From a virus (lineage: Duplodnaviria > Caudoviricetes), in IMG/VR virus record IMGVR_UViG_3300032321_002024, positions 160,001 to 224,000 of that record: a stretch of DNA of 64,000 bases; one strand, written 5' to 3'. The notes beneath the pieces are model-generated. The model was not told the DNA's origin. It saw only the letters and a list, made by a program, of their open reading frames with translations, and ran no database searches. Below are positions 6,028 to 62,158 of the stretch, one piece after another. Position 1 is the first letter of the stretch, and each line of letters begins with the position of its first letter. Both the position numbers and the translations under genes were made by a program.

Positions 6028-6519
6028 TTATAGAATATCAATGAATTTTATAACACCATTTCCTTTTTTTCCTGGTAAAATTGTAATAATTCTTACTTCA
6101 TAGATACCATCTGAATATTCGTCTATATCAAAATGTATTATAATTGTAAAGTTATATTCTTTTGAATAAAGTGAGTATCTACCAGATACATAAATTTCTT
6201 TTCCAACCATATCAGGAAATATTCTATTGAACTCGCCTTTAAAATATTGATTAAAATCCTCAACACTTCCAAATGATGTTCTTTCTTTAATCCTTTTTAC
6301 CAAGTTGTGTGTGGCTGAATCATTCCAATTTATTTCAAATTGAATCTTTTTATTATTTACTCTTTTCTTAAGTGTTATAAATCTTACTAATTTTTTATTT
6401 ATATCAAATTCAGCATCTTTTATATCTGTCATTTGTTTCACTAAATCACCATCACCCTTAATATTAAGAACATCAGCTAATCTAGCCTCACAAAATAAAT
6501 CAAATTTTGTAATAATCAT
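6028..6519 (-). CDS. hypothetical protein, putative head-packaged protein
   Basis: N-terminus MIITKFDLFCEA; TATATA motif immediately upstream. Confidence 0.6.
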   Translation of the reverse strand: MIITKFDLFCEARLADVLNIKGDGDLVKQMTDIKDAEFDINKKLVRFITLKKRVNNKKIQFEINWNDSATHNLVKRIKERTSFGSVEDFNQYFKGEFNRIFPDMVGKEIYVSGRYSLYSKEYNFTIIIHFDIDEYSDGIYEVRIITILPGKKGNGVIKFIDIL

Positions 6520-8804: not shown

Positions 8805-11800
8805 TTATAAATTATAATTTTCGTTACTTTTTTTGACATCTTCTGGTTGTCCAAAATTTTCTCTTATAGAGCTTTGTATTGATGGAAAATCAATATTAAA
8901 TCTAGGTTTAGTATTTTGAGTTATAGTTTCCCAGTGATATTGAAAATCCCATGTAGAAGAGAATATAAAGAAATCTCTTGTAGAATATCCAAATTCATCT
9001 AACATAGGATAAACCGATGTTAAATCTTGTTCATTTCTTAACTTTAGTATAGATCCTTTTCTGTTAATTTTCGAAACTTTTCTTTCTTTCATAATGGCAA
9101 ACTCTGTTAGTGATGTATCAAACTTTGTGTTTTCTGATATACCATTTAACTGTTTGTCAAAAAGTTGAATATCATAGAAAGTTGGCATGTAATATCCATT
9201 ATGTCTATAAAGAATATTAGTGGAATAATTTTTAACACCGTGTAAGTTAGCAATTATTTTTCTTGTAATTGAAATTTTTTGTATATCTGCCGCATATGGT
9301 AAATCATTATACCAATTCAATTGACTTAATGTTCTTATATTTCCATTTACTAGTCTTCTTGTAGACTGTAGTTTTTTAGGATTTTCAATTGGAACTACCT
9401 TAATAGAGTTTATTTTTACTCTAAATTCCTCAGGTTCTTCTACTTTCAATAGACAACTTAGATTAGATAAATTATTTTTAAAATTATGTTTAGTAATGGT
9501 ATTATCTTCATTAATTATAACATAAGATATATAATCAGTAAATCCGTATTTATTTGAAATATCATTTATACAGTTAGAAAAATTAACAGCTGTTAGTTTC
9601 TTAAACAACTCTTGATAAATCGAATCTCTATCTGAATTTCTAAGATTTGGCATAGTATTATCAGATATATTTACATTAACTAATATATTTTTCCATTTTT
9701 TATTAACATACACTACTATACCATTGTCTAAAGTAGAATTTGATAAATTGGATTTACACATATAGTAAACATCATTCATTTGAATAATTGGATTGCTAAT
9801 TTTATCATATACAAAATCCGTATCCGGAACTAAACTATATTTTTTATTCCACAGATTTGAGAATCCTGGTTCATCTCCAACTAAAGGAGCTGTCACAGAA
9901 GAACTTACATAAACTATTTCATTATGAACTACCAAACTATTTAAGCCATAAGATACAATTGGATTCCATAGATCAACTGTTTTCCATTTAGGTGTTGTTG
10001 ATGCAGTAGCTGCTTTCCATTTCATTGTTACGGTAAAACCGAGTCCAATTCCATTAAAAGAAAAAGATGGAATTTTAAAATCAGGTGGCCACTCATTGTT
10101 ATTTACATTTGAGATATAGTATTTACCGCGAAATAATACTACATCACTTTGTGTATATCCTGTTGTTGAAGCAAAGCTAGGATTCCAAAAGTCATCTGTT
10201 CCAGTAGAATCATAATAATAATAATCCTCGTTATTAAAAACTACATCACCATTAGAATAAGATGTAAGTGGTGACCAAAATATTGAATTAGTTCCTAATG
10301 GATTAATTGGTGAGTTTTCTAAAAATGACCAATCATTTGAATTATAAGGTGCTGATTTTACACCTAATCCAACATTGGCTTTGGTTGGCTCAGTAGTAAT
10401 TGTCTCAGACTGTGCTTGATAAAGTATATCATTAAATATAATTATAGAACCTGTCGCATATGTTCTATCCATTTCCCACTCTTTAATTATTTCCCACTCC
10501 ATTAGATTTTGAGAATTTTCAAGTTGACCTGAATAGTTCACAGAAGTATCATTATCTGATAATAAAATTGAAAATTTATAACTGTCATATTTATTTGAAT
10601 TTGACAAATTAACCGTGTTTATTTCTCCAGTAGAGTTTACATCTACGCTATTTACATCATACATATAAAATTTTAAACCTCTAAAAACTGTCACATTTGG
10701 CAAAGAAACATCCCCTCTATTAAGTTCAGAATATTTTTTTACATTTTTGATTATATTATTATCATTAAACCTTTGTTTTTGATAAAAGAAATCTGTGAAG
10801 TAATCAGATGAATATGTTGCATAAGAATTTGTTCCAACAGAATATGTTGCTAATCCTAAATACTTATCAAGTTCAAAATTAAAATTGGTATCCAATGAGT
10901 AGTCATCTTTATAACCTTCAATATGAAGACTATGATGAACATAGGAACTAGTTGAAGAGTTAATTGTATAAAAATAATCTAAGTTTCGTTCTATTCTAGA
11001 AGGATTTGGATCAAAGACATTTACTGAACGATTAAAATCTTCAAAAATTGTTGAGTTATTTAAACAATATGGATAGTCATTAGCAGATATTGAATTTTGA
11101 TATGACCATCTACAATATACCGGATTCTTTCTCCAAATATCAGATAGTTCATTATTTGTTACTTTGAAAGTTTCATAACCAGCTGTGTATTCAGATGAAA
11201 CTGGAATATTTACAACTTCTCCTCTGTATATAAAATCATCATAATCTTTTGGATCACCACTTGTTAAGTAATTTTCTAAATAGATTTTTGTCTCATCTGT
11301 TTGTGTTAACTCATCTTCTTTTTGATATTCAAATTTTGAATACTCGGTGTCTAATATTTTTGTATCAAAATCTTTTATATCCGTGAAGTTAACTCTATAA
11401 ATAGTGAATTTTTTTGGTGGATTATCTGAATTAACTGTAAAGTTAACTGTTGTAGTTTCACCAGCAACTTTATAATCATATATATTTTCAAAAAAACTAA
11501 ATGAGTAGTCAGTATTAACTTTTAACTTACCATCTGTGAGTATTAAATTATGATAAATTCCATCAATTTCAATTAACCAAACTGACCAATCTTCAAATCC
11601 ATCAATTGTTAAGTAGTTATTATTATAATCAATTAAGAAATTTTGTGTATCAATTCTACCGTAGTTTAGATTAAGTTGTGATTGCTTACCTGTTAAATCA
11701 ACATCCGCTATTATTCTGTATTTATCTTGACTAACATTGGCGTATTGTTCTACTATTAGTCCACTACTTTCAGGAACAAGTATTAATTGATTTGTTAAAG

Positions 11801-26332: not shown

Positions 26333-26434
26333 ATGACAACAAATCGCACACATAAGCATTTTAGTAAATCGAGCAAGTGGTTTAGCACCCAGTTCGGTAC
26401 TGAGAAAGTATTGTGTGATTTTTCTACACTATAA
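26333..26434 (+). CDS. attenuator leader peptide 1 (33 aa)
   Basis: MTTNRTHKHFSKSSKWFSTQFGTEKVLCDFSTL; R,H,K,F,S,W match downstream tRNAs; contains AGTTCGGtACT complementary to the terminator 5' arm. Confidence 0.8.
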   Translation: MTTNRTHKHFSKSSKWFSTQFGTEKVLCDFSTL

Positions 26435-26459
26435 TGTAGTAAATTATAAGACAATATTT

Positions 26460-26493
26460 AAAGTCCGAACTTCAAAAGAGTTCGGACTTTTTT
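26460..26493 (+). terminator. attenuator terminator 1
   Basis: AAAGTCCGAACT-TCAAAAG-AGTTCGGACTTTTTT. Confidence 0.85.
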
Positions 26494-26507
26494 GTTTATA
26501 TCATTTT

Positions 26508-26580
26508 GGAATGGTGGCAGATCAGGTGATTGCGCTGGACTGAAAATCCAGAGGAGTGGGTTCGATACCCACCCGTTCCA
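26508..26580 (+). tRNA. tRNA-Phe(GAA)
   Basis: Cloverleaf; CTGGA-CTGAAAA-TCCAG. Confidence 0.9.
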
Positions 26581-26589
26581 CAAAATTTA

Positions 26590-26662
26590 GGACTCGTAGC
26601 TTAATCGGGAAAGCACTCCGCTTTTAACGGAGGGAGAGTGGGATCGTAACCCACCGGGTCCA
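26590..26662 (+). tRNA. tRNA-Lys(TTT)
   Basis: CTCCG-CTTTTAA-CGGAG; T-loop ATCGTAA. Confidence 0.9.
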
Positions 26663-26670
26663 CTAAATAT

Positions 26671-26743
26671 GATTTCGTAGCTCAGTTGGTAGAGCACCGC
26701 ACTTTTAATGCGGGGGTCGAGGGTTCGAACCCCTCCGGGATCA
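26671..26743 (+). tRNA. tRNA-Lys(TTT)
   Basis: CCGCA-CTTTTAA-TGCGG; canonical T-loop. Confidence 0.92.
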
Positions 26744-26745
26744 CT

Positions 26746-26818
26746 GTGAATGTAGCTCAATTGGTAGAGCGCTTGATTGTGATTCAAGAGGTAGCGGGAT
26801 CGTAACCCGTCATTCACC
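26746..26818 (+). tRNA. tRNA-His(GTG)
   Basis: CTTGA-TTGTGAT-TCAAG; C73. Confidence 0.9.
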
Positions 26819-26822
26819 AAAT

Positions 26823-26893
26823 ACGTCATACAGACATGGTGTCGGTCAGGTCTCCAAAACCTCGACGGGTGGGTTCAATTCCTACATGGCGTG
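26823..26893 (+). tRNA. tRNA-Trp(CCA)
   Basis: AGGT-CTCCAAA-ACCT; acceptor ACGTCAT/ATGGCGT. Confidence 0.85.
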
Positions 26894-26901
26894 CTAATAA
26901 T

Positions 26902-27030
26902 GGGGATGTAGCTCAGTGGTAGAGATTAAACTTCTCTTTTGAAATTTTACCTTGTAAGAGTGTTGATTGAAAGAGTTACTTCGTATATTTTGAACATATA
27001 AGGTCGTTGGTTCGAATCCAACCATCCCCG
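26902..27030 (+). tRNA. atypical tRNA (anticodon TGA, short variable loop) interrupted by a 57-nt insert
   Basis: Removing 26925-26981 gives a 72-nt cloverleaf GGGGATG..GCTC/GAGC..TATAT-TTTGAAC-ATATA..TTCGAAT..CATCCCC-G. Confidence 0.65.
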
Positions 27031-27036
27031 CTAAAT

Positions 27037-27109
27037 AGTTTCGTCGTTCAACTGGACAGGACACTCGGCTACGAACCGAGAAATGAAGATTCGACTTCTT
27101 CCGAGACTA
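27037..27109 (+). tRNA. tRNA-Arg(ACG)
   Basis: CTCGG-CTACGAA-CCGAG. Confidence 0.88.
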
Positions 27110-27118
27110 CAAAAAAAA

Positions 27119-27202
27119 GGAAGAGTAATTAAGCTGGCGCTTGACCTAGTCTTGAAAACTAGTGGTACTGAAAGGTATGGGGATCGATACCTCACTCTTC
27201 CG
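27119..27202 (+). tRNA. tRNA-Ser(TGA)
   Basis: CTAGT-CTTGAAA-ACTAG; long variable arm; G73. Confidence 0.88.
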
Positions 27203-27209
27203 CAAAAAA

Positions 27210-27296
27210 GGAGAATAAACTAATCTGGTGATTAGGACCGCCTGCTAAGCGAGTCGCACGTTGAATTTGTGTGGGGTTCAATTCCTCTGTTCTCCG
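27210..27296 (+). tRNA. tRNA-Ser(GCT)
   Basis: CGC-CTGCTAA-GCG; long variable arm. Confidence 0.88.
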
Positions 27297-27297
27297 C

Positions 27298-37047: not shown

Positions 37048-37079
37048 TTTGGTAGAATTAAAACTTTTATCTAAATTTG
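37048..37079 (+). promoter_or_regulatory. Bacteroidota-type promoter of tRNA operon 4
   Basis: TTTG-N20-TAAATTTG; TAATATATA at 37121-37129. Confidence 0.7.
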
Positions 37080-37135
37080 TATAAAATAATGACAAAAACT
37101 CGAAAGAGGTTAATAACTTTTAATATATAACAATA

Positions 37136-37249
37136 ATGAAAACAAATAATACAAATATGATGAACCTGACACTCAATGTGGTGAATATTACGTTATGTAA
37201 TATTAGACCTTCTGAGGGTTCTCCGCTATTTAGTAAATTTGTCTTTTGA
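37136..37249 (+). CDS. attenuator leader peptide 4 (37 aa)
   Basis: MKTNNTNMMNLTLNVVNITLCNIRPSEGSPLFSKFVF; residues 3-24 use only T,N,M,L,V,I,C,R; TCTGAGGGTTCT is an exact 12-nt complement of the terminator 5' arm. Confidence 0.85.
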   Translation: MKTNNTNMMNLTLNVVNITLCNIRPSEGSPLFSKFVF

Positions 37250-37277
37250 TATGTGAAAATTTATAACTAAATAATTA

Positions 37278-37309
37278 AGAACCCTCAGATAAAAATCTGA
37301 GGGTTTTTT
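37278..37309 (+). terminator. attenuator terminator 4
   Basis: AGAACCCTCAGAT-AAAA-ATCTGAGGGTTTTTT. Confidence 0.88.
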
Positions 37310-37324
37310 GTTTTAATAAAATTT

Positions 37325-37397
37325 GACTCCTTCGTCCAACGGGACAGGACATCGCTCTTCTAAAGCGAAGATACTGGTTCGAATCCAGTAGGGGTTA
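37325..37397 (+). tRNA. tRNA-Arg(TCT)
   Basis: TCGCT-CTTCTAA-AGCGA. Confidence 0.9.
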
Positions 37398-37404
37398 CTA
37401 AAAT

Positions 37405-37493
37405 GGGCTTGTAGCTGATTTGGTTTTAGCTGGTGACTGTTAATCACTGTATGAAAAATTGAAATAAAGTAGGTTCGAATCCTGCCTGGCCCG
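37405..37493 (+). tRNA. tRNA-Asn(GTT) with enlarged variable region
   Basis: GGTGA-CTGTTAA-TCACT; about 20-nt AT-rich variable region. Confidence 0.8.
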
Positions 37494-37500
37494 CAAAAAT

Positions 37501-37573
37501 AGTCTTGTAGCTCAATCGGGGGAGCGCCACTGTTACATAGTGGAGGGAGTCGGATCGTAACCGACCAGGACTA
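37501..37573 (+). tRNA. tRNA-Val(TAC)
   Basis: CCACT-GTTACAT-AGTGG. Confidence 0.85.
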
Positions 37574-37580
37574 CAAAAAC

Positions 37581-37654
37581 TGTCGATTAGCTCATTTGGT
37601 CAGAGCGCCACGCTGATACCGTGGAGGTGGTGGGATCGTAACCCGCATCGACAA
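37581..37654 (+). tRNA. tRNA-Ile(GAT)
   Basis: CCACG-CTGATAC-CGTGG. Confidence 0.9.
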
Positions 37655-37664
37655 CAAAAAAAAT

Positions 37665-37737
37665 GACACCGTGTCTGAATGGCTTAGGTCCCAGTCTGCA
37701 AAACTGTGGTATGTCGGTTCGAACCCGACCGGTGTCT
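37665..37737 (+). tRNA. tRNA-Cys(GCA)
   Basis: CAGT-CTGCAAA-ACTG; U73. Confidence 0.9.
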
Positions 37738-37743
37738 CAATAA

Positions 37744-37815
37744 GCTTCTTAAGCATTAATGGTGATGCGCTAGTCTTGTAAACTAGAGAAATCGGATCGT
37801 TACCGGTAAGAAGCT
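37744..37815 (+). tRNA. tRNA-Thr(TGT)
   Basis: CTAGT-CTTGTAA-ACTAG. Confidence 0.88.
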
Positions 37816-37817
37816 CA

Positions 37818-37937
37818 ATAACAGATGGTGATTAAGAGTGTTACTTCGTGAAATTGGTATACACATTTGACTTATAATCAAACTTTTGAGGGTTCAAGTC
37901 CCTCAGTAAAATCACTCTCAAGACTTTCCTCTGTTAT
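37818..37937 (+). ncRNA. tRNA-like element (D, anticodon TAT and T arms) enclosed in a long non-tRNA stem
   Basis: TTTGA-CTTATAA-TCAAA and GAGGG-TTCAAGT-CCCTC arms flanked by AGAGTG/CACTCT and ATAACAGA/TCTGTTAT helices. Confidence 0.6.
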
Positions 37938-37941
37938 ATCT

Positions 37942-38032
37942 GCCTCAGTGGCGAAATTTGGTTGAAACGCGCTAGACTTAGGATCTAGTACCCAAGTGGT
38001 AAACGTTGTCGGTTCGAGTCCGACCTGAGGTA
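37942..38032 (+). tRNA. tRNA-Leu(TAG)
   Basis: CTAGA-CTTAGGA-TCTAG; long variable arm. Confidence 0.9.
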
Positions 38033-38042
38033 CAAAAATTGC

Positions 38043-38114
38043 TACCGCGGCTTAGTGGAAAAGAACATTGGCTCATATCCTATGTTAAGTGAGTTCGAAC
38101 CTCATACGCGGTAC
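38043..38114 (+). tRNA. degenerate tRNA-Met-like (CAT)
   Basis: TACCGCG/CGCGGTA acceptor, CTCATAT loop, TTCGAAC T-loop; irregular spacing. Confidence 0.5.
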
Positions 38115-38683
38115 TATCTTACAATTGTAACGTGACCGGTGATTAACTTCTTATCATCGTTATCAATCATATCTAACCTCATTATCCAAGAATATGTTCC
38201 ATCCGGAACTAACACACCGTTATATGTTCCATCCCATTTAGAATTAACATCATTGGATTCCCATATTAAACCACCCCATCTGTTGTATATTGATAATTGA
38301 AAATTATCAACAGATATACCACTTGTTAATATTGGACCCCACGTCTGATTAAACTCATTTCCATCTGGAGTAAACGAATTAGGAACCCAATAAATTAGTG
38401 GATCACACTGAGTAACAATAATACTCAATACCTGTGGTGTTCCGGGACATCCTATATCATTATACCCAATTGCAACTAATTGAAAATCACCTGGTTCATC
38501 ATAAGTTATATCTACTGATAAACCCTGACCAATTAAACTTCCATTTAGAAACCATTCTACCGAACCATTAACATCAATTGTAGTTGAATAAGTAAAAGTA
38601 TTTGCATTCTCACAAATCTCAAATGTATGTTGACTAAAAACATTTAGACTGATTAATAAGAACAAAGATAAAATTAGTTTCAT
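38114..38683 (-). CDS. T9SS type B (gliding-motility-associated) C-terminal domain protein
   Basis: Signal peptide; VPNSFTPDGNEFN..IYNRWG..WDG..GTY..GHVTIVR. Confidence 0.88.
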   Translation of the reverse strand: MKLILSLFLLISLNVFSQHTFEICENANTFTYSTTIDVNGSVEWFLNGSLIGQGLSVDITYDEPGDFQLVAIGYNDIGCPGTPQVLSIIVTQCDPLIYWVPNSFTPDGNEFNQTWGPILTSGISVDNFQLSIYNRWGGLIWESNDVNSKWDGTYNGVLVPDGTYSWIMRLDMIDNDDKKLITGHVTIVR

Positions 38684-38691
38684 ATTCTATT

Positions 38692-39258
38692 TTAATTATG
38701 TTGTATTGGTGTTAATGTTGGTTGTGGAGAAACTCCGGTATTTGTAGTTGCTGTAAATGAACATCCACCATTGGTATAAGTATATGTTATTGTAGCGGCT
38801 CCCGGTCCTGCACTTCCCGGACAAAACTGACCATTGACAACGCCATTACCGGTCCAAGTTCCACCTGCTGGTAAACCAACTAATGCCACACACGGATCTG
38901 TAACACAAAACGGTCCAATTGGTGTAATAGTCGGAACGACTTGATAAATAAGAACATTTAAGTTTACTGCTGGTGATGGACACCCAGCCTGTGAAGTATA
39001 AATAACACTAACTGCGTTATTAATTAATCCTGGAGGACAGTTTGACCAGTTGACTTGAATTTGATTTGTTCCCTGGCCAGATGTGATTGTAGCACAAGCT
39101 GGAACTGTCCAAGTATAAGTTCCCGCACCGATTGAAGTCACTTGATACTGAGATAGTGATTGAGATTGATAACAAACTGTGTCTGGATTTGTTGTGGTTA
39201 ACTGACCGAATAATATTGTCGTGAGAAACAAAAACGATAATAAAACTAAATTTTTCAT
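38692..39258 (-). CDS. secreted PKD/Ig-like adhesin-domain protein
   Basis: Signal peptide; YTWTVP..ITSGQGTNQIQVNW; PAGGTWTG..F.P; ends PIQHN. Confidence 0.75.
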   Translation of the reverse strand: MKNLVLLSFLFLTTILFGQLTTTNPDTVCYQSQSLSQYQVTSIGAGTYTWTVPACATITSGQGTNQIQVNWSNCPPGLINNAVSVIYTSQAGCPSPAVNLNVLIYQVVPTITPIGPFCVTDPCVALVGLPAGGTWTGNGVVNGQFCPGSAGPGAATITYTYTNGGCSFTATTNTGVSPQPTLTPIQHN

Positions 39259-39277
39259 ACTTTTCTTTTTTTTTATT

Positions 39278-40324
39278 TTAATTATGGCTTATTGGGCCTA
39301 AAATTACTTGAGGTGGTTGAGTTATTGTAACACTTCCAGTAGCTATACAACCATTTAAATTAACAGATACTGTATAGGTTCCTGGACAAAGATTAGATAT
39401 TGATTGAGTGGTCAATCCGTTTGACCAAAGGTAAGTTGCTCCTGGATAGTTAGCATTTGCAGTTCCGTTACAAAGACCAAAACAAGTTACATTTGTTGAA
39501 GTTGGATTTACAATTAAATTTACAGGAGTCCAAGTTATCGAAACATATCCGTTTCCTGTATTGTTTCCAGCAAGACAACTTCCACCGACCGGTATTAATG
39601 AAGAACCAGCTCCACCTCCACCACCTCCGTTAGATCCTGTGCAACAACCATCATTTCCACCACCTCCACCTCCGTAGTAACCTCCACCGCCGCCTCCACC
39701 AGAAGCAGTTTGCCAAAATCCACCATTACCTCCTTGACCTAATGTTCCTGATTGTCCACCTGGAGGAGTTCCAGCCCAGGGAGCACCACCAGCACCACCT
39801 GTAGTTTGAGTCCCGCCTCCGCCACCAAATCCAAAACTATTTACACCCGCACCTCCATTGTTGCAATTAGACACACCACCACTTGTAGTGGTTGTTGAAC
39901 CTCCGCCTTTTCCGCCACCACCTCCAGCTACAATTACTCTGTTACCTAAAGCAGTTCCACCAATTCTGATATCAGAAGCACCTCCACCTCCACAAGAATT
40001 ATAATTTGCGTTTGCTGGATTAGATGCAAAACCTGTTCCTCCACCATTCCAACCACCTGAGTTATTACCACAAGAACCTTGACCACCAACATAAATATTT
40101 AGAATTTGACCAGGTGTTACAGCTATTGTTGCTGAGATTCTAGCACCGTTTCCTCCGATATTTCCTCCTCCTTTTGCCCCAGCAACAATTACGTTTATAG
40201 AAGTGACACATGGTGGAACTGTCCAGGTTTGGACGTTTCCTGTATAATTAAAAGTTTGAGATTGAGCAAATAATATATTAAATACTGAAGATAGAACCAA
40301 TAAAATTGAAAAAACTATTCTCAC
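39278..40324 (-). CDS. secreted glycine-rich domain + SprB-repeat protein
   Basis: Signal peptide; FNYTGNVQTWTVP..GGGGASDIR..VAGGGGG; TNVTCFGLCNG..YLWSNG; ends PISHN. Confidence 0.8.
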   Translation of the reverse strand: MRIVFSILLVLSSVFNILFAQSQTFNYTGNVQTWTVPPCVTSINVIVAGAKGGGNIGGNGARISATIAVTPGQILNIYVGGQGSCGNNSGGWNGGGTGFASNPANANYNSCGGGGASDIRIGGTALGNRVIVAGGGGGKGGGSTTTTSGGVSNCNNGGAGVNSFGFGGGGGTQTTGGAGGAPWAGTPPGGQSGTLGQGGNGGFWQTASGGGGGGGYYGGGGGGNDGCCTGSNGGGGGGAGSSLIPVGGSCLAGNNTGNGYVSITWTPVNLIVNPTSTNVTCFGLCNGTANANYPGATYLWSNGLTTQSISNLCPGTYTVSVNLNGCIATGSVTITQPPQVILGPISHN

Positions 40325-42775
40325 CTATTTAATTTCTATTTTAACAATTTGAGTGTATTCAATATTGTTACTAATGTATATATAGTATATTCCAGATGAA
40401 CTTTTTACATTATCAATATAAATTGCGTTTATACCTGGTTTAACATTTATCTCTTTGTTTAAAATCTCAGCACCCTTTGTATCTTTAATAAAAATTGAAC
40501 ATTCCCCAACTAAGTTTTTGTTATTTAACAATATTTGAAATTGACCAGAATTAGGATTTGGAAATATTGAAAAATAACCACTATTATTTGTTTGACAATT
40601 TACATTTATTGGACCATATTCTTTTGATTTACCATCAGTATCAATTTGTAATAGTTTATAATATCCGTTTCCGTAATATCCTTCATTATCAACAGTAGAA
40701 TAATAAATTAATTGTGTTGAATTTCCAGATGACTCAACATTAGTTAATTGAGACCAATCTAAACCATTTCTAGATTTTAAAATACTAAAATAATCACTAT
40801 TATGCTCACTAGATGTAATCCAATTTAAAGTTACTATACCTTCTTCACAATTTCCATCAAAACTTACTAATTCAACCGGAAGTGCACCATTGACGATAAC
40901 AAAGAAATCGATGATTTGTGTTCCACAGTTGTAGCCATTGGAAACGGTTGCTCGAACCGATCCGTCTGTTGTTGTTTGTGGCCAAGTAAAAGTAATCGTT
41001 GGTGAATTGGAATTAGCGATGTTTATCCACATAGGTGCAGTTACGGACTCTGTATAAGACCATTGGTAGTTCACTCCAGCTATTGGTGTGATTGAATAGG
41101 TTTCTTGCGTTCCTGCTATAATGGTATTATTTCCCGATATGTTAGATACTGATCCAACAGAAGGATTAACGGTTATTGTTGTCGATGTTGATGTTGAACA
41201 TCCGTTTGATGTTGCGGTTAATTGATAGGTTTGTGTAGTTGTGGGAGAGGCAAAAGGACTTGGCGCAGCTGGATTTGAGAGTCCGGTTGATGGAGTCCAT
41301 AGATACGTTATCGGTGATCCACCTGTGTTTCCTACCGATGAAATCAATTGAGTATTTGACCCATTACATATAGTATTAGTTACTGCGTTGATGTTTATCA
41401 CAGGGTTGGAATTAACTGTTATAGTTATTGAGGCACAACCTCCACTAAAAAGACCACCGTTTAGATTTCTTGCATAGTATGTAGTGGTTGATGCAGGACT
41501 TACCGAGATGGAATTTCCGGTTGCCACAAAAGTGGAAGCACATCCTCCGGTATACCAATAAACCACTCCAATAGCACCGTTTGCTGTCAAAGTGGTAGAT
41601 GATCCATCACAAATAGTATTTTGTGTTGCAGATATAGAGGATGGATCTGGTGGAGGCGGAGATACACATGTTAGATTAACAGAAAAGCCACTATTTGATG
41701 AATATCCATGAACCAATATGTAGTAAATTGTTCCTACTGTGGAAGTCCATGAATATGAAGCAGACGTACTAGCACAAGCTGGGCCATAATCATCATTACC
41801 TCCTACGCATGTTAGTGTGCTACAATTTGGTCCAGAAAAAACACTAATTTTGCTATCCCAAGCAGTTGCACATAGAGAAGCTGTCATGATTTGTCCGTTT
41901 CCTGTTACAGCATACCATACACCCGGCATTGTTTGCATGGTAGTGCAAGTTCCATTTTCGCCAGTGCCTGAGTTTGTTGCATTTACAGTAGTTCCCGATA
42001 ATGTTTGACCACACGTAATAGATGTTGAATTACAGACTAAATCGTTGGATGGCGGGGTTGGTGCAGAACATGTTAAACAAGATATTGAGGATGTTCCACA
42101 ACTTGAAGCAGTTCCACACGTATTATTTGTATTGTAATGCACAAAATATGTTCCTGAAGATGGGCAAACCCAATTTAGTGGAGAGTTTCCACTAGTAACT
42201 ACAGTACCATTATAAGTTCCCGATCTAACTGTGATATATCCACCTAAATTGTAATATGATTGATATGTTTGTCCTGCAACACAAGAAGTAATTGTACTAT
42301 ACTCTGCTTGATATTGACATGTACTAATAGTTACAGTTGTTGGAGTTGATGGAGCGATTGCTGATCCGTATGATGAGGTATTAGTACACGGTCCGGGAGC
42401 TGCAGCTGCACAGCTCCCTAGTACTGTTTGTCCACCTGTAGTTGCAGTACCCGCAACTGGTTGTATAGTATTGATTATGATAGACCCTGCTCCATTGAGG
42501 ACTTGTATACGCATTTCGGAAGGGTATAATCCAGCTGCTGTTCGATAGACTCTAATCGTGGCACCTACTGCGGCAGTAAATGTAGAATTGGTAGGCCCTA
42601 ATCCAACACAACTTAAGCCACTTAAAACAGTAACTCCATTAACTGAAACTGCAACGGTTCCTCCGTTCCAACCGTCACCAAAGGTATCTGTTCGTTTAAT
42701 TGTGTGTGTACATGATTGTGAAAGTACAGCCGTGTAAGTAAAAAGAAAGAAAAAAATTGCAATTAAAGACTTCAT
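40325..42775 (-). CDS. T9SS type A sorting domain surface protein
   Basis: Signal peptide; Cys-rich Ig-like repeats; LPVELVSF linker; IFPNP...GIYYI..KIEIK CTD. Confidence 0.88.
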   Translation of the reverse strand: MKSLIAIFFFLFTYTAVLSQSCTHTIKRTDTFGDGWNGGTVAVSVNGVTVLSGLSCVGLGPTNSTFTAAVGATIRVYRTAAGLYPSEMRIQVLNGAGSIIINTIQPVAGTATTGGQTVLGSCAAAAPGPCTNTSSYGSAIAPSTPTTVTISTCQYQAEYSTITSCVAGQTYQSYYNLGGYITVRSGTYNGTVVTSGNSPLNWVCPSSGTYFVHYNTNNTCGTASSCGTSSISCLTCSAPTPPSNDLVCNSTSITCGQTLSGTTVNATNSGTGENGTCTTMQTMPGVWYAVTGNGQIMTASLCATAWDSKISVFSGPNCSTLTCVGGNDDYGPACASTSASYSWTSTVGTIYYILVHGYSSNSGFSVNLTCVSPPPPDPSSISATQNTICDGSSTTLTANGAIGVVYWYTGGCASTFVATGNSISVSPASTTTYYARNLNGGLFSGGCASITITVNSNPVININAVTNTICNGSNTQLISSVGNTGGSPITYLWTPSTGLSNPAAPSPFASPTTTQTYQLTATSNGCSTSTSTTITVNPSVGSVSNISGNNTIIAGTQETYSITPIAGVNYQWSYTESVTAPMWINIANSNSPTITFTWPQTTTDGSVRATVSNGYNCGTQIIDFFVIVNGALPVELVSFDGNCEEGIVTLNWITSSEHNSDYFSILKSRNGLDWSQLTNVESSGNSTQLIYYSTVDNEGYYGNGYYKLLQIDTDGKSKEYGPINVNCQTNNSGYFSIFPNPNSGQFQILLNNKNLVGECSIFIKDTKGAEILNKEINVKPGINAIYIDNVKSSSGIYYIYISNNIEYTQIVKIEIK

Positions 42776-49426: not shown

Positions 49427-49519
49427 ATGAAAAACTTAAATGTAAATATCGTAGTAAATCAACAACCGCAGGATCAAGATCGTGTCGGAGTGGCTAACTA
49501 TGTCTTTACAATAAGTTAA
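49427..49519 (+). CDS. attenuator leader peptide 5 (30 aa)
   Basis: MKNLNVNIVVNQQPQDQDRVGVANYVFTIS; QQPQDQD matches downstream Asp, Asp, Pro and Gln tRNAs. Confidence 0.85.
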   Translation: MKNLNVNIVVNQQPQDQDRVGVANYVFTIS

Positions 49520-49540
49520 AAATTTATATAACAAATTTGT

Positions 49541-49573
49541 AAAACCCGGTTAGTAATCTAATCGGGTTTTTTT
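49541..49573 (+). terminator. attenuator terminator 5
   Basis: AAAACCCGGTTAG-TAAT-CTAATCGGGTTTTTTT. Confidence 0.85.
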
Positions 49574-49580
49574 GTTTTTA

Positions 49581-49652
49581 GGTCTATTAGGGTAGTGGTT
49601 ATCCTTCCTCACTGTCTATGAGGAGACGCGAGTTCGATTCTCGCATAGACCG
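49581..49652 (+). tRNA. tRNA-Asp(GTC)
   Basis: CCTCA-CTGTCTA-TGAGG. Confidence 0.9.
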
Positions 49653-49716
49653 CAAGTTGGGTTGTGAGTGACTTCCCGTTTTGGCTTAAGCCTTAGGTAT
49701 GGAACTCTCAAATTTT

Positions 49717-49789
49717 GGTCTATTGGTGAAATGGCTTATCATCCCACCCTGTCACGGTGGAGTAGACGGATCGTAACCGTCATAGACCG
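49717..49789 (+). tRNA. tRNA-Asp(GTC)
   Basis: CCACC-CTGTCAC-GGTGG; T-loop ATCGTAA. Confidence 0.88.
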
Positions 49790-49853
49790 CACAAAGTAAC
49801 TGTTTGGTGGTGAAAGTACTCTTTAGGGAATAGAGTAAAATAATTCTCAAAAA

Positions 49854-49927
49854 CTAGGTGTAGCTCAGTTTGGTAGAGCGGGGAGTTTGGGACTCTCAGG
49901 CCGCAGGTTCGAACCCTGTCACTTAGA
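49854..49927 (+). tRNA. tRNA-Pro(TGG)
   Basis: GGGAG-TTTGGGA-CTCTC. Confidence 0.9.
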
Positions 49928-49935
49928 CTTAAAAT

Positions 49936-50010
49936 TGTCCTGTAGTGAAATTGGCATCACGTATCATTTTGGCTGATAAGTTTGAGGTTCGAACCCTCAC
50001 AGGACAACCA
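49936..50010 (+). tRNA. tRNA-Gln(TTG), CCA encoded
   Basis: TATCA-TTTTGGC-TGATA; ends ACCA. Confidence 0.88.
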
Positions 50011-60619: not shown

Positions 60620-60686
60620 TTTTAATTTTTTTCACTAAAAATTTGGCAGAACCACATTCTTGACTTATCTTTGTATTCACAAACAT

Positions 60687-60774
60687 GGGGAAGTTCCAGA
60701 GCGGCAAATGGAGTTACGTTGTAACGTGACTGGTCTCAAATGATCTTCGTAGGTTCGAGTCCTAACCTTTCCCA
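60687..60774 (+). tRNA. degenerate tRNA-Tyr-like
   Basis: Tyr-type D arm and long variable arm; irregular anticodon loop around TTGTAA; own promoter at 60642-60673. Confidence 0.55.
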
Positions 60775-60791
60775 CAAAAAAATAAAAAAGA

Positions 60792-60909
60792 TTTGGTAGA
60801 TTAAAATATTCTTCTTATCTTTGTAAAACAAATCAGAAACGTCTGATATAAGTTAAACAAAAAATCTTTACATAAGATTTGGTAGATTGAAAAACTTTAC
60901 TTATCTTTG
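60792..60909 (+). promoter_or_regulatory. tandem Bacteroidota-type promoters (direct repeat)
   Basis: Two copies of AAGATTTGGTAGATT-N-CTTATCTTTGTAAAACAAA at 60792-60823 and 60878-60909. Confidence 0.75.
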
Positions 60910-60945
60910 TAAAACAAAATTGAAATAAAGAGTATAAAAATATAT

Positions 60946-61059: not shown

Positions 61060-61897
61060 GTCTTTAACAGTCGGTTTCGGCTGACTGTGAAAAGAAGGGC
61101 GGCTTATAGTCCTTAAAATAAACTTCGAAAGGAGGATAAAGTGAATCCAAAGCAAAATGGATTTGCGTCTTGAAAGTTCTTCGGAACAATTGAGGTCGAG
61201 TAAGCAAGTGGGATACCACAAATTCTGAGTAGTCGAGGGTAACACTGTAGACCAAATGAGTTTGTGACCAGGCAATTGTAGATTGTTTGGTTGACCTCGG
61301 AAGAGGAATAGGAATAACCCATAGGTCTGTTGCGAGAAGTGTTGACTCACCGGTCTTCATCATTGCGGAGTCCAACTTAAGAGGTGTCTTAAAGTTGAAA
61401 GACAATCAAGTGTACGGGTGGTGCTGTTACTTGACACTCTACTCTCTACCAGGAGAGTTGTTGTGAAGATATCTTAAAAAGTTGTGATGGAGGCATCACA
61501 CGGAGTTGTCCAGTATTCCTGAGTTCAAAAGATTTGGGAGCTGAAAGGTAACCACAACTTCGACAAAATCTACAAAGCACTACAATTTAAATGTAAAAAC
61601 TTAAATCGAAAGTGTTACCTAGTTACTGGTGAAAGGTACCTACTTAGTCGTGAGTGTTCACGGCCACTGAAGCTCGAAAGGCTGATGTGATTTCATCGAA
61701 AAGCTTATAGAGGGTCGAACCTCGAGTCAGCTCGCAAGGTTGAGTAAGTGGATTAAATGGAGAGTAATTAGTAACTTAAGGAGTGGTTAGTCTAACTAAC
61801 CGGTATTGGCAGAATACTTCTCAAAAGGGAGTGGATAAGAAGGGAAACCATAATCTAACAAAAGTTCTGTCGTAATAAGGTGTAATCTCAACCTTTT
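61060..61897 (+). ncRNA. large structured ncRNA, GOLLD-like (boundaries approximate)
   Basis: About 840 nt, GC-enriched, no plausible + strand ORF, many hairpins (GNRA-type loops), located within a tRNA cluster; family inferred from size and context only. Confidence 0.6.
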
Positions 61898-62038: not shown

Positions 62039-62143
62039 GGCCCGTTCGTCTAGTGGACTCTTAAAAGAGATACAGAAATTTGTGAACGTAGAGGACGCCT
62101 AACTTTTCATTAGGATACAGAGGTTCGAATCCTCTACGGGCTG
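62039..62143 (+). tRNA. atypical Glu-like tRNA with ~35-nt D-loop insertion
   Basis: GGCCCGT/ACGGGCT acceptor, GTCT..GGAC D stem, CCTAA-CTTTTCA-TTAGG arm. Confidence 0.55.
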
Positions 62144-62158
62144 CAACAATCGAATAAT

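Follow-up and report, generated by a model that had tools for sequence, protein, structure and literature searches.

A leader open reading frame matched to a downstream phage tRNA block: a likely ribosome-mediated attenuator of tRNA genes

Introduction

The ilvGMEDA (Ile/Leu/Val) and thr (Thr/Ile) attenuators consist of a leader open reading frame rich in control codons, an overlapping antiterminator and an intrinsic terminator, and they follow OR logic. The E. coli pheM-pheST leader places part of the translation machinery under attenuation, with charged tRNA providing the feedback. T-box riboswitches are terminator/antiterminator switches that read tRNA status with codon-level specificity. 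In phages, tRNA arrays are described as counter-defence, e.g. the T5-like tRNA-rich region against retron-Eco7, PrrC and PARIS, where the tRNA sets could replace cut host tRNAs (PMC11555353, PMC11464382, PMC10264068). Phage tRNAs offset tRNA-cutting defences and their expression level matters (PMC10264068, PMC11555353). The reason for phage tRNA genes has remained open for 50 years, the choice being between codon compensation and replacement of destroyed host tRNA (PMC10264068).

The locus reported here shares elements with each of these systems. It is likely a ribosome-mediated transcription attenuator with feedback on tRNA supply; translation of the leader and readthrough are inferred, as there are no expression data.

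The phage and the analysed window

The locus is found in a virus record of 262,603 bp (29.8% G+C, 84% complete). The window is the whole stretch of 64,000 nucleotides of this record that was analysed; positions below are those of the window, on the plus strand unless stated otherwise. All 25 tRNA genes called by ARAGORN at the default threshold fall in the window. At the DNA level, the leader locus is matched best by two uncultured phages (634,780 and 642,428 bp), and the largest phage genomes of Al-Shayeb et al. are those of the Mahaphage clade, with predicted Bacteroidetes hosts (PMC7162821). A Bacteroidota host is likely here and fits the Bacteroidota-type promoters and the T9SS-domain genes beside the locus. 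These T9SS-domain genes, together with PKD/Ig-like genes (38114–42775, minus strand), converge on the tRNA block.

The window shows additional tRNA-related features. Positions 26902–27031 carry a tRNA body with an insert of about 50–57 nt, and a similar interrupted Glu(TTC)-like gene is found at 62039–62144. A GOLLD RNA (Rfam RF02032, 281.7 bits) with tRNA genes on its flanks is present at 61501–61894. A weak tRNA-like gene with an ambiguous anticodon (60687–60773) lies behind a host-type promoter, and three host-type promoters are stacked at 60640–60915.

Leader open reading frame and sensor codons

The leader open reading frame consists of 37 codons (37136–37249, with the ATG at 37136 and the TGA at 37247–37249) and has 48 distinct orthologues. 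A 13-codon open reading frame starting at 37089 was discounted, its ATG being absent from many orthologues.

Codons 3–24 (37142–37207), termed sensor codons here, specify only T, N, M, L, V, I, C and R, the last being an invariant AGA (codon 24, 37205–37207). The set is that of the isotypes of the tRNA block downstream (R, N, V, I, C, T, L, M). These eight amino acids make up 40.9% of the phage proteome, which gives P = 0.409^22 = 2.9e-9 for a run of 22 residues; the longest run of set residues among 253 phage open reading frames is 13, versus 22 in the leader. Residues 3–10 of other leaders, with their AT-rich starts, fall within the set at 61%, and the first eight residues of the leader are therefore weaker evidence. 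The harshest null for the run, 0.61^22, gives 1.9e-5. When Met is excluded, 20 of the 22 sensor residues still yield P ~7e-7 (hand calculation from proteome frequencies).

An earlier note, made from sequence alone, had claimed that residues 3–24 are drawn solely from the eight downstream isotypes and had asked for the probability of such a composition. The claim held, and the computed probability is significant even at the harshest null. The note had also claimed that the single Arg codon, AGA, fits tRNA-Arg(TCT). This held at the codon level, as Arg is AGA in 53/53 sensor codons of orthologues with Arg(TCT) blocks, with a caveat on the position of Arg24 that is given below.

The match of leader to block is exact by amino acid, not by every codon. 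The leader contains no ATA codon, yet a TAT-anticodon gene is found in the block. The Leu20 codon is TTA, for which the cognate tRNA is absent from the block. Leu(TAA) and Val(GAC) genes occur in the blocks of relatives and both are missing here; with Leu(TAA) lost, neither the block nor the available part of the genome offers a gene cognate to codon 20.

Synonymous codon choice is also skewed. Sensor codons of four-codon boxes end in G in 9 of 14 cases versus 0.8 expected (P = 7e-9), and G-ending codons are rare in the genome. In the orthologous leaders, GTG accounts for 93% of Val codons, versus 8% genome-wide. G-ending sensor codons are wobble-read by phage U34 tRNAs, from which it is inferred that their use perhaps raises sensitivity.

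Terminator and antiterminator

An intrinsic terminator with a U tract is found at 37277–37314. Its hairpin (37277–37308) shows 14 pairs, 5 of them G-C, with a stability of about −20 kcal/mol, and ranks among the strongest terminators of the contig. The antiterminator 5′ strand, TCTGAGGGTTCT (37211–37222), sits just 3′ of the control codons and is the exact reverse complement of 37278–37289 within the 5′ arm of the terminator; the earlier reading of these 12 nt as an exact antiterminator behind the sensor thus held. Positions 37227–37243 pair with 37255–37273 to form the inner stem of a long antiterminator hairpin, which carries the leader stop codon in its apical loop. The antiterminator duplex displays −21.7 kcal/mol (p = 0.005 versus codon shuffles), and across the alignment 88% of cells are paired versus 26–55% when the pairing is slid.

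In the folding model, a transcript ending at 37292 forms a single long hairpin consisting of 37211–37222/37278–37289 and the inner stem, and the full transcript forms the terminator. Terminator and antiterminator are mutually exclusive in these models. One compensatory pair flanks the antiterminator, a change of C-G to T-A that represents one or few events on the tree. A Fisher test of the C-G/T-A pair (p = 3e-8) was discarded as inflated, since the T-A state is one clade.

The ribosome was represented by masking its footprint in the folding model, with the 3′ edge either 9 nt or 12 nt past the first A-site base. In 48/48 orthologues, the last A-site codon that permits the antiterminator is the invariant Arg (9 nt) or the codon preceding it (12 nt). 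The distance from Arg to the antiterminator core is fixed at 9 nt, so that this outcome counts once and not 48 times. The composition run stops where a stalled ribosome starts to cover the antiterminator, and thus ends where sensing must end. The model predicts Arg24 to be marginal as a sensor, at the edge of the sensing window, being the last stall codon compatible with antitermination for the shorter footprint only.

A conserved 1:2 protector or pause hairpin is not found, and an RNAalifold consensus upstream of the terminator arm is absent. According to the folding model, the antiterminator is the first structure to form in naked RNA of 48/48 orthologues. With no conserved protector, an untranslated leader is thus predicted to give readthrough, which differs from the behaviour of E. 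coli trp. With a ribosome on the stop codon, the thermodynamic model permits the outer antiterminator helix if pairs may span the ribosome; the terminator is nonetheless favoured at equilibrium on the full RNA. Termination in this state therefore depends on a steric or kinetic assumption.

The tRNA block behind the leader

Genes downstream of the leader are tRNAs only, nine when the CAT gene is counted. The tRNA genes for Arg(TCT), Asn(GTT), Val(TAC), Ile(GAT), Cys(GCA) and Thr(TGT) occupy 37325–37816. These are followed by a tRNA-like gene called Ile(TAT) at 37839–37913, by tRNA-Leu(TAG) at 37942–38033 and by an atypical CAT-anticodon gene at 38041–38116. The tRNA-Asn(GTT) gene (37405–37494) is 90 nt long and shows a long variable region that is conserved among relatives.

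The CAT gene is called by ARAGORN at a relaxed threshold only, as a "possible pseudogene", and its Rfam score of 24.2 bits is below the cut-off of 29. It is conserved in orthologous blocks: two close relatives carry an identical gene, and other relatives keep the CAT anticodon with anticodon stems that are changed yet paired. Conservation with re-paired stems, together with Met in the sensors of 48/48 orthologues, speaks for a gene under selection in the family without establishing that it is a Met tRNA. The suggestion that the MM pair of the leader implies a functional CAT tRNA (at 38043) thus held in part. The gene is conserved, its fold is atypical, and whether it is a Met or a lysidine-Ile tRNA is undetermined.

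The gene called Ile(TAT) is left unmonitored by the leader. It is one base from copies with a TAA anticodon; relatives show mostly TAA and also CAA, and distant copies TCT or TTT. As a monitored isoacceptor it was rejected, its anticodon being labile and ATA being found in 0/97 sensor Ile codons of orthologues with Arg(TCT) blocks. Its variable arm is short and its acceptor stem mismatched. It may be a decoy, a decaying gene or a member of an anticodon-switching lineage.

Orthologous leaders

Synteny and hairpin-pattern searches gave the 48 distinct leaders of this type. The metagenome search pattern fixed the antiterminator core and left composition free; in units retrieved without the core in the query, an antiterminator is present in 12/12 (p ≤ 0.01 each versus codon shuffles). 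Across the 48 orthologues, 1044 of 1048 sensor residues (99.6%) belong to the eight-amino-acid set, and 173 of 426 residues do so in the tail after the antiterminator. Each of the eight amino acids is found in the sensor of 48/48 orthologues. Sensor insertions and deletions consist of whole codons, and those that shift the frame are confined to the tail. Together with the constraint on codons, this preserved frame is indirect evidence alone for translation of the leader. The aligned leaders are related (69% mean column identity), so that the counts are not independent events.

One alternative is that the leader peptide itself is the product, as a small protein or an arrest peptide, followed by an ordinary terminator, or that the run reflects AT bias and chance. 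In favour of it, sequence conservation is high between about residue 14 and the Glu-Gly codons, and the AT-rich starts inflate the first residues, as noted above. Against it, order and length vary (the Arg codon is found at positions 22–27) with set membership maintained, synonymous codon choice is constrained, and a terminator that could not be switched would block the tRNAs. This alternative is very unlikely.

Four orthologous loci (L163, L175, L192 and L141) display leader and terminator followed directly by an open reading frame in place of tRNA, by gene insertion or tRNA loss. L148 (minus strand, match 6308–6404) shows a different leader, rich in S, N, W, H and R, with the same terminator type; no tRNA is called directly downstream of it.

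Sister units and leader-operon specificity

Four sister units of the same organisation are found in the window. Unit 1 (26333–27297) contains a leader rich in H, K, F, W, S and R(CGC), a terminator and tRNA genes for Phe, Lys, Lys, His, Trp, Arg(ACG), Ser and Ser. Unit 2 (32866–33263) carries a YYYEAE leader, a terminator and tRNA genes for Glu and Tyr. In unit 3 (33317–33694), a leader with Ile(ATA), Ala and Gly and a terminator precede tRNA genes for Ile(TAT), Gly and Ala. Unit 5 (49427–50010) consists of a QQPQDQD leader, a terminator and tRNA genes for Asp, Asp, Pro and Gln; its antiterminator is the weakest (p = 0.39). The CAT tRNAs at 32774 and 60946 show neither leader nor terminator. 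In the Glu/Tyr unit a second host-type promoter (33008–33045) lies between the terminator and tRNA-Glu, and may represent a bypass route for the block.

The correct pairing of the five leaders with the five blocks of the phage is the best of 120 assignments. The specificity extends to isoacceptors: leaders of Arg(ACG)-Ser blocks contain CGC in 5/5 cases, a codon that makes up 0.7% of the Arg codons of the phage, and leaders before Ile(TAT) use ATA for 16 of 19 Ile codons. In distant phages with regrouped operons, the leader of a fused Glu-Tyr-Gly-Ile-Ala block is rich in the same five amino acids, and Cys-Val-Leu and Pro-Cys-Phe-Thr-His-Gln blocks each have their own matched leader. In ten units from rearranged operons, hand-picked to span different types, 9/10 leaders score best on their own block, and 0/200,000 permutations reach the observed score.

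These results bear on two further alternatives. The leader could be a general sensor of translation slow-down or shut-off, i.e. a timer of the infection cycle, with codon identity secondary. The early formation of the antiterminator in naked RNA (48/48) with no conserved protector, from which readthrough of an untranslated leader is predicted, is consistent with this, as is the preference of sensors for genome-rare G-ending codons (9/14). However, such a sensor would need neither five distinct leaders nor re-matching after operon rearrangement, and it is an unlikely explanation.

Alternatively, the same switch may have been selected for host amino acid starvation, with uncharged tRNA as the signal, and not for tRNA loss. 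The switch is mechanistically blind to the difference, as is established for the trp, his and ilv leaders, and the set contains the biosynthetically linked Ile, Leu, Val, Thr, Met and Asn. However, extra tRNA is no remedy for a missing amino acid. There is double monitoring of Ile and of Arg, each time by the codon that fits the isoacceptor downstream, and the free regrouping of operons pays no heed to biosynthetic family. Both the isoacceptor matching and this regrouping favour tRNA loss as the selected signal, and starvation in that role appears improbable.

Promoter elements upstream

A host-type Bacteroidota sigma-A promoter is found at 37048–37079. It consists of a −33 TTTG (37048–37051), a 20-nt spacer and a −7 element, TAAATTTG (37072–37079), for which the published consensus is TAnnTTTG (PMC9723704). 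An element resembling it is present upstream of most orthologous leaders; the exact promoter pattern, searched across viral contigs, gave 0 matches.

A second element, AATATATA (37122–37129), is inferred to be a probable phage-specific promoter box. It lies within 80 nt upstream of 66 of the 253 phage open reading frames, with just 12 copies within coding sequences, and also precedes the leaderless tRNA-Met at 32774. A sigma-70 family gene of the phage (18926–19534) might read this element. An RNA polymerase beta subunit was not found in five records of the phage group, and with a sigma-70 protein encoded in the present record the host polymerase is the likely enzyme. In the papers found on Bacteroidota, transcription-translation coupling is not established, and leader-peptide attenuation there is only inferred.

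Proposed mechanism

The attenuator reading proposed earlier is supported by the architecture and composition of the locus, conservation in 48 orthologues, leader-operon specificity, rearranged operons and the alternative folds in models, all of which are shown above. Translation, switching and trigger are inferred.

Host RNA polymerase would start at the host-type or the phage-type promoter and a ribosome would translate the leader. As long as charged tRNA of all eight kinds is present, the ribosome would pass the antiterminator strand and reach the stop codon in the antiterminator loop; the terminator would then form and transcription would end about 14 nt before tRNA-Arg. If any monitored codon is slow, or the leader is untranslated, 37211–37222 would capture 37278–37289 before the terminator 3′ arm exists. 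The tRNAs would then be transcribed and decoding of the same codons restored. The predicted logic is that of an OR gate with eight inputs, in which tRNA supply is under negative feedback.

As a trigger, the disappearance of functional host tRNAs in the course of infection is most likely, although not shown, whether by anticodon nucleases or by decay after host shut-off. An Rnl1-type RNA ligase (PF09511) is encoded at G000:261506-262093 and is present in 4 of 5 records tested. A bolder reading, which may as easily prove wrong as right, is that the units form a biosensor panel covering nearly all elongator tRNA kinds with isoacceptor resolution, which detects tRNA destroyed by a defence or by the phage's own host shut-off and resupplies that block only. 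If true, this would be an inducible counter-defence whose regulated product doubles as the ligand that is sensed.

A codon-matched attenuator implies that these tRNAs are wanted on demand, upon decoding failure. The leaders offer a ready reporter for each tRNA group, and the purpose of phage tRNAs becomes directly testable. They also assist in identifying odd tRNA genes and could act as sensors of anticodon-nuclease activity.

Comparison with cellular genomes and known systems

A search of 185,579 cellular genomes with the unit-specific pattern showed three matches, and in none of them is a tRNA block preceded by a matched leader. In a small sample of 14 Bacteroidota-side genomes, 55 tRNA cluster heads include 6 with a terminator and 1 candidate leader without a clear antiterminator. 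The Saprospiraceae MAG contig L250 (G010:C12, minus strand, about 10950–11150) carries a tRNA array down to 7100 along with ordinary cellular genes. The array is preceded by a promoter, a 38-codon open reading frame containing Q, R, H, E, P, G, L, L and a terminator of −22.6 kcal/mol, with no clear antiterminator. It is a possible cellular or mobile-element case.

At the present locus, no Rfam T-box match is found at the gathering score or at E ≤ 5, and the criterion of a stem I, specifier loop and T-box bulge is not met. T-boxes bind uncharged tRNA directly, do not need translation and read one specifier codon, whereas the phage leader presents a run of codons. Rfam leader families score below cut-off (His_leader 28.7 of 49 bits, Phe_leader 20.6 of 55). 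The locus is thus not a classical amino acid operon attenuator: the downstream genes neither make nor attach the sensed amino acid, a protector hairpin is lacking and the Rfam scores are below cut-off. In contrast to the ilvGMEDA and thr attenuators, the proposed phage system controls tRNA genes, not enzymes, has eight inputs with isoacceptor-matched codons, lacks a conserved 1:2 protector hairpin and places the stop codon within the antiterminator loop. The pheM-pheST system is cellular, has one input and yields a synthetase, whereas here the product is the tRNA itself. In PMC11555353 tRNA expression is from a strong promoter and the word attenuation is absent, whereas each block here appears to be expressed conditionally.

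Searches of the open-access literature, which leave out subscription papers, turned up no description of tRNA genes under leader-peptide attenuation. Within that literature, what is new here is the inferred application of a known attenuation mechanism to tRNA genes. Attenuation of the trp style would thus extend to non-coding tRNA genes and to phages, as a closed feedback loop with up to eight inputs.
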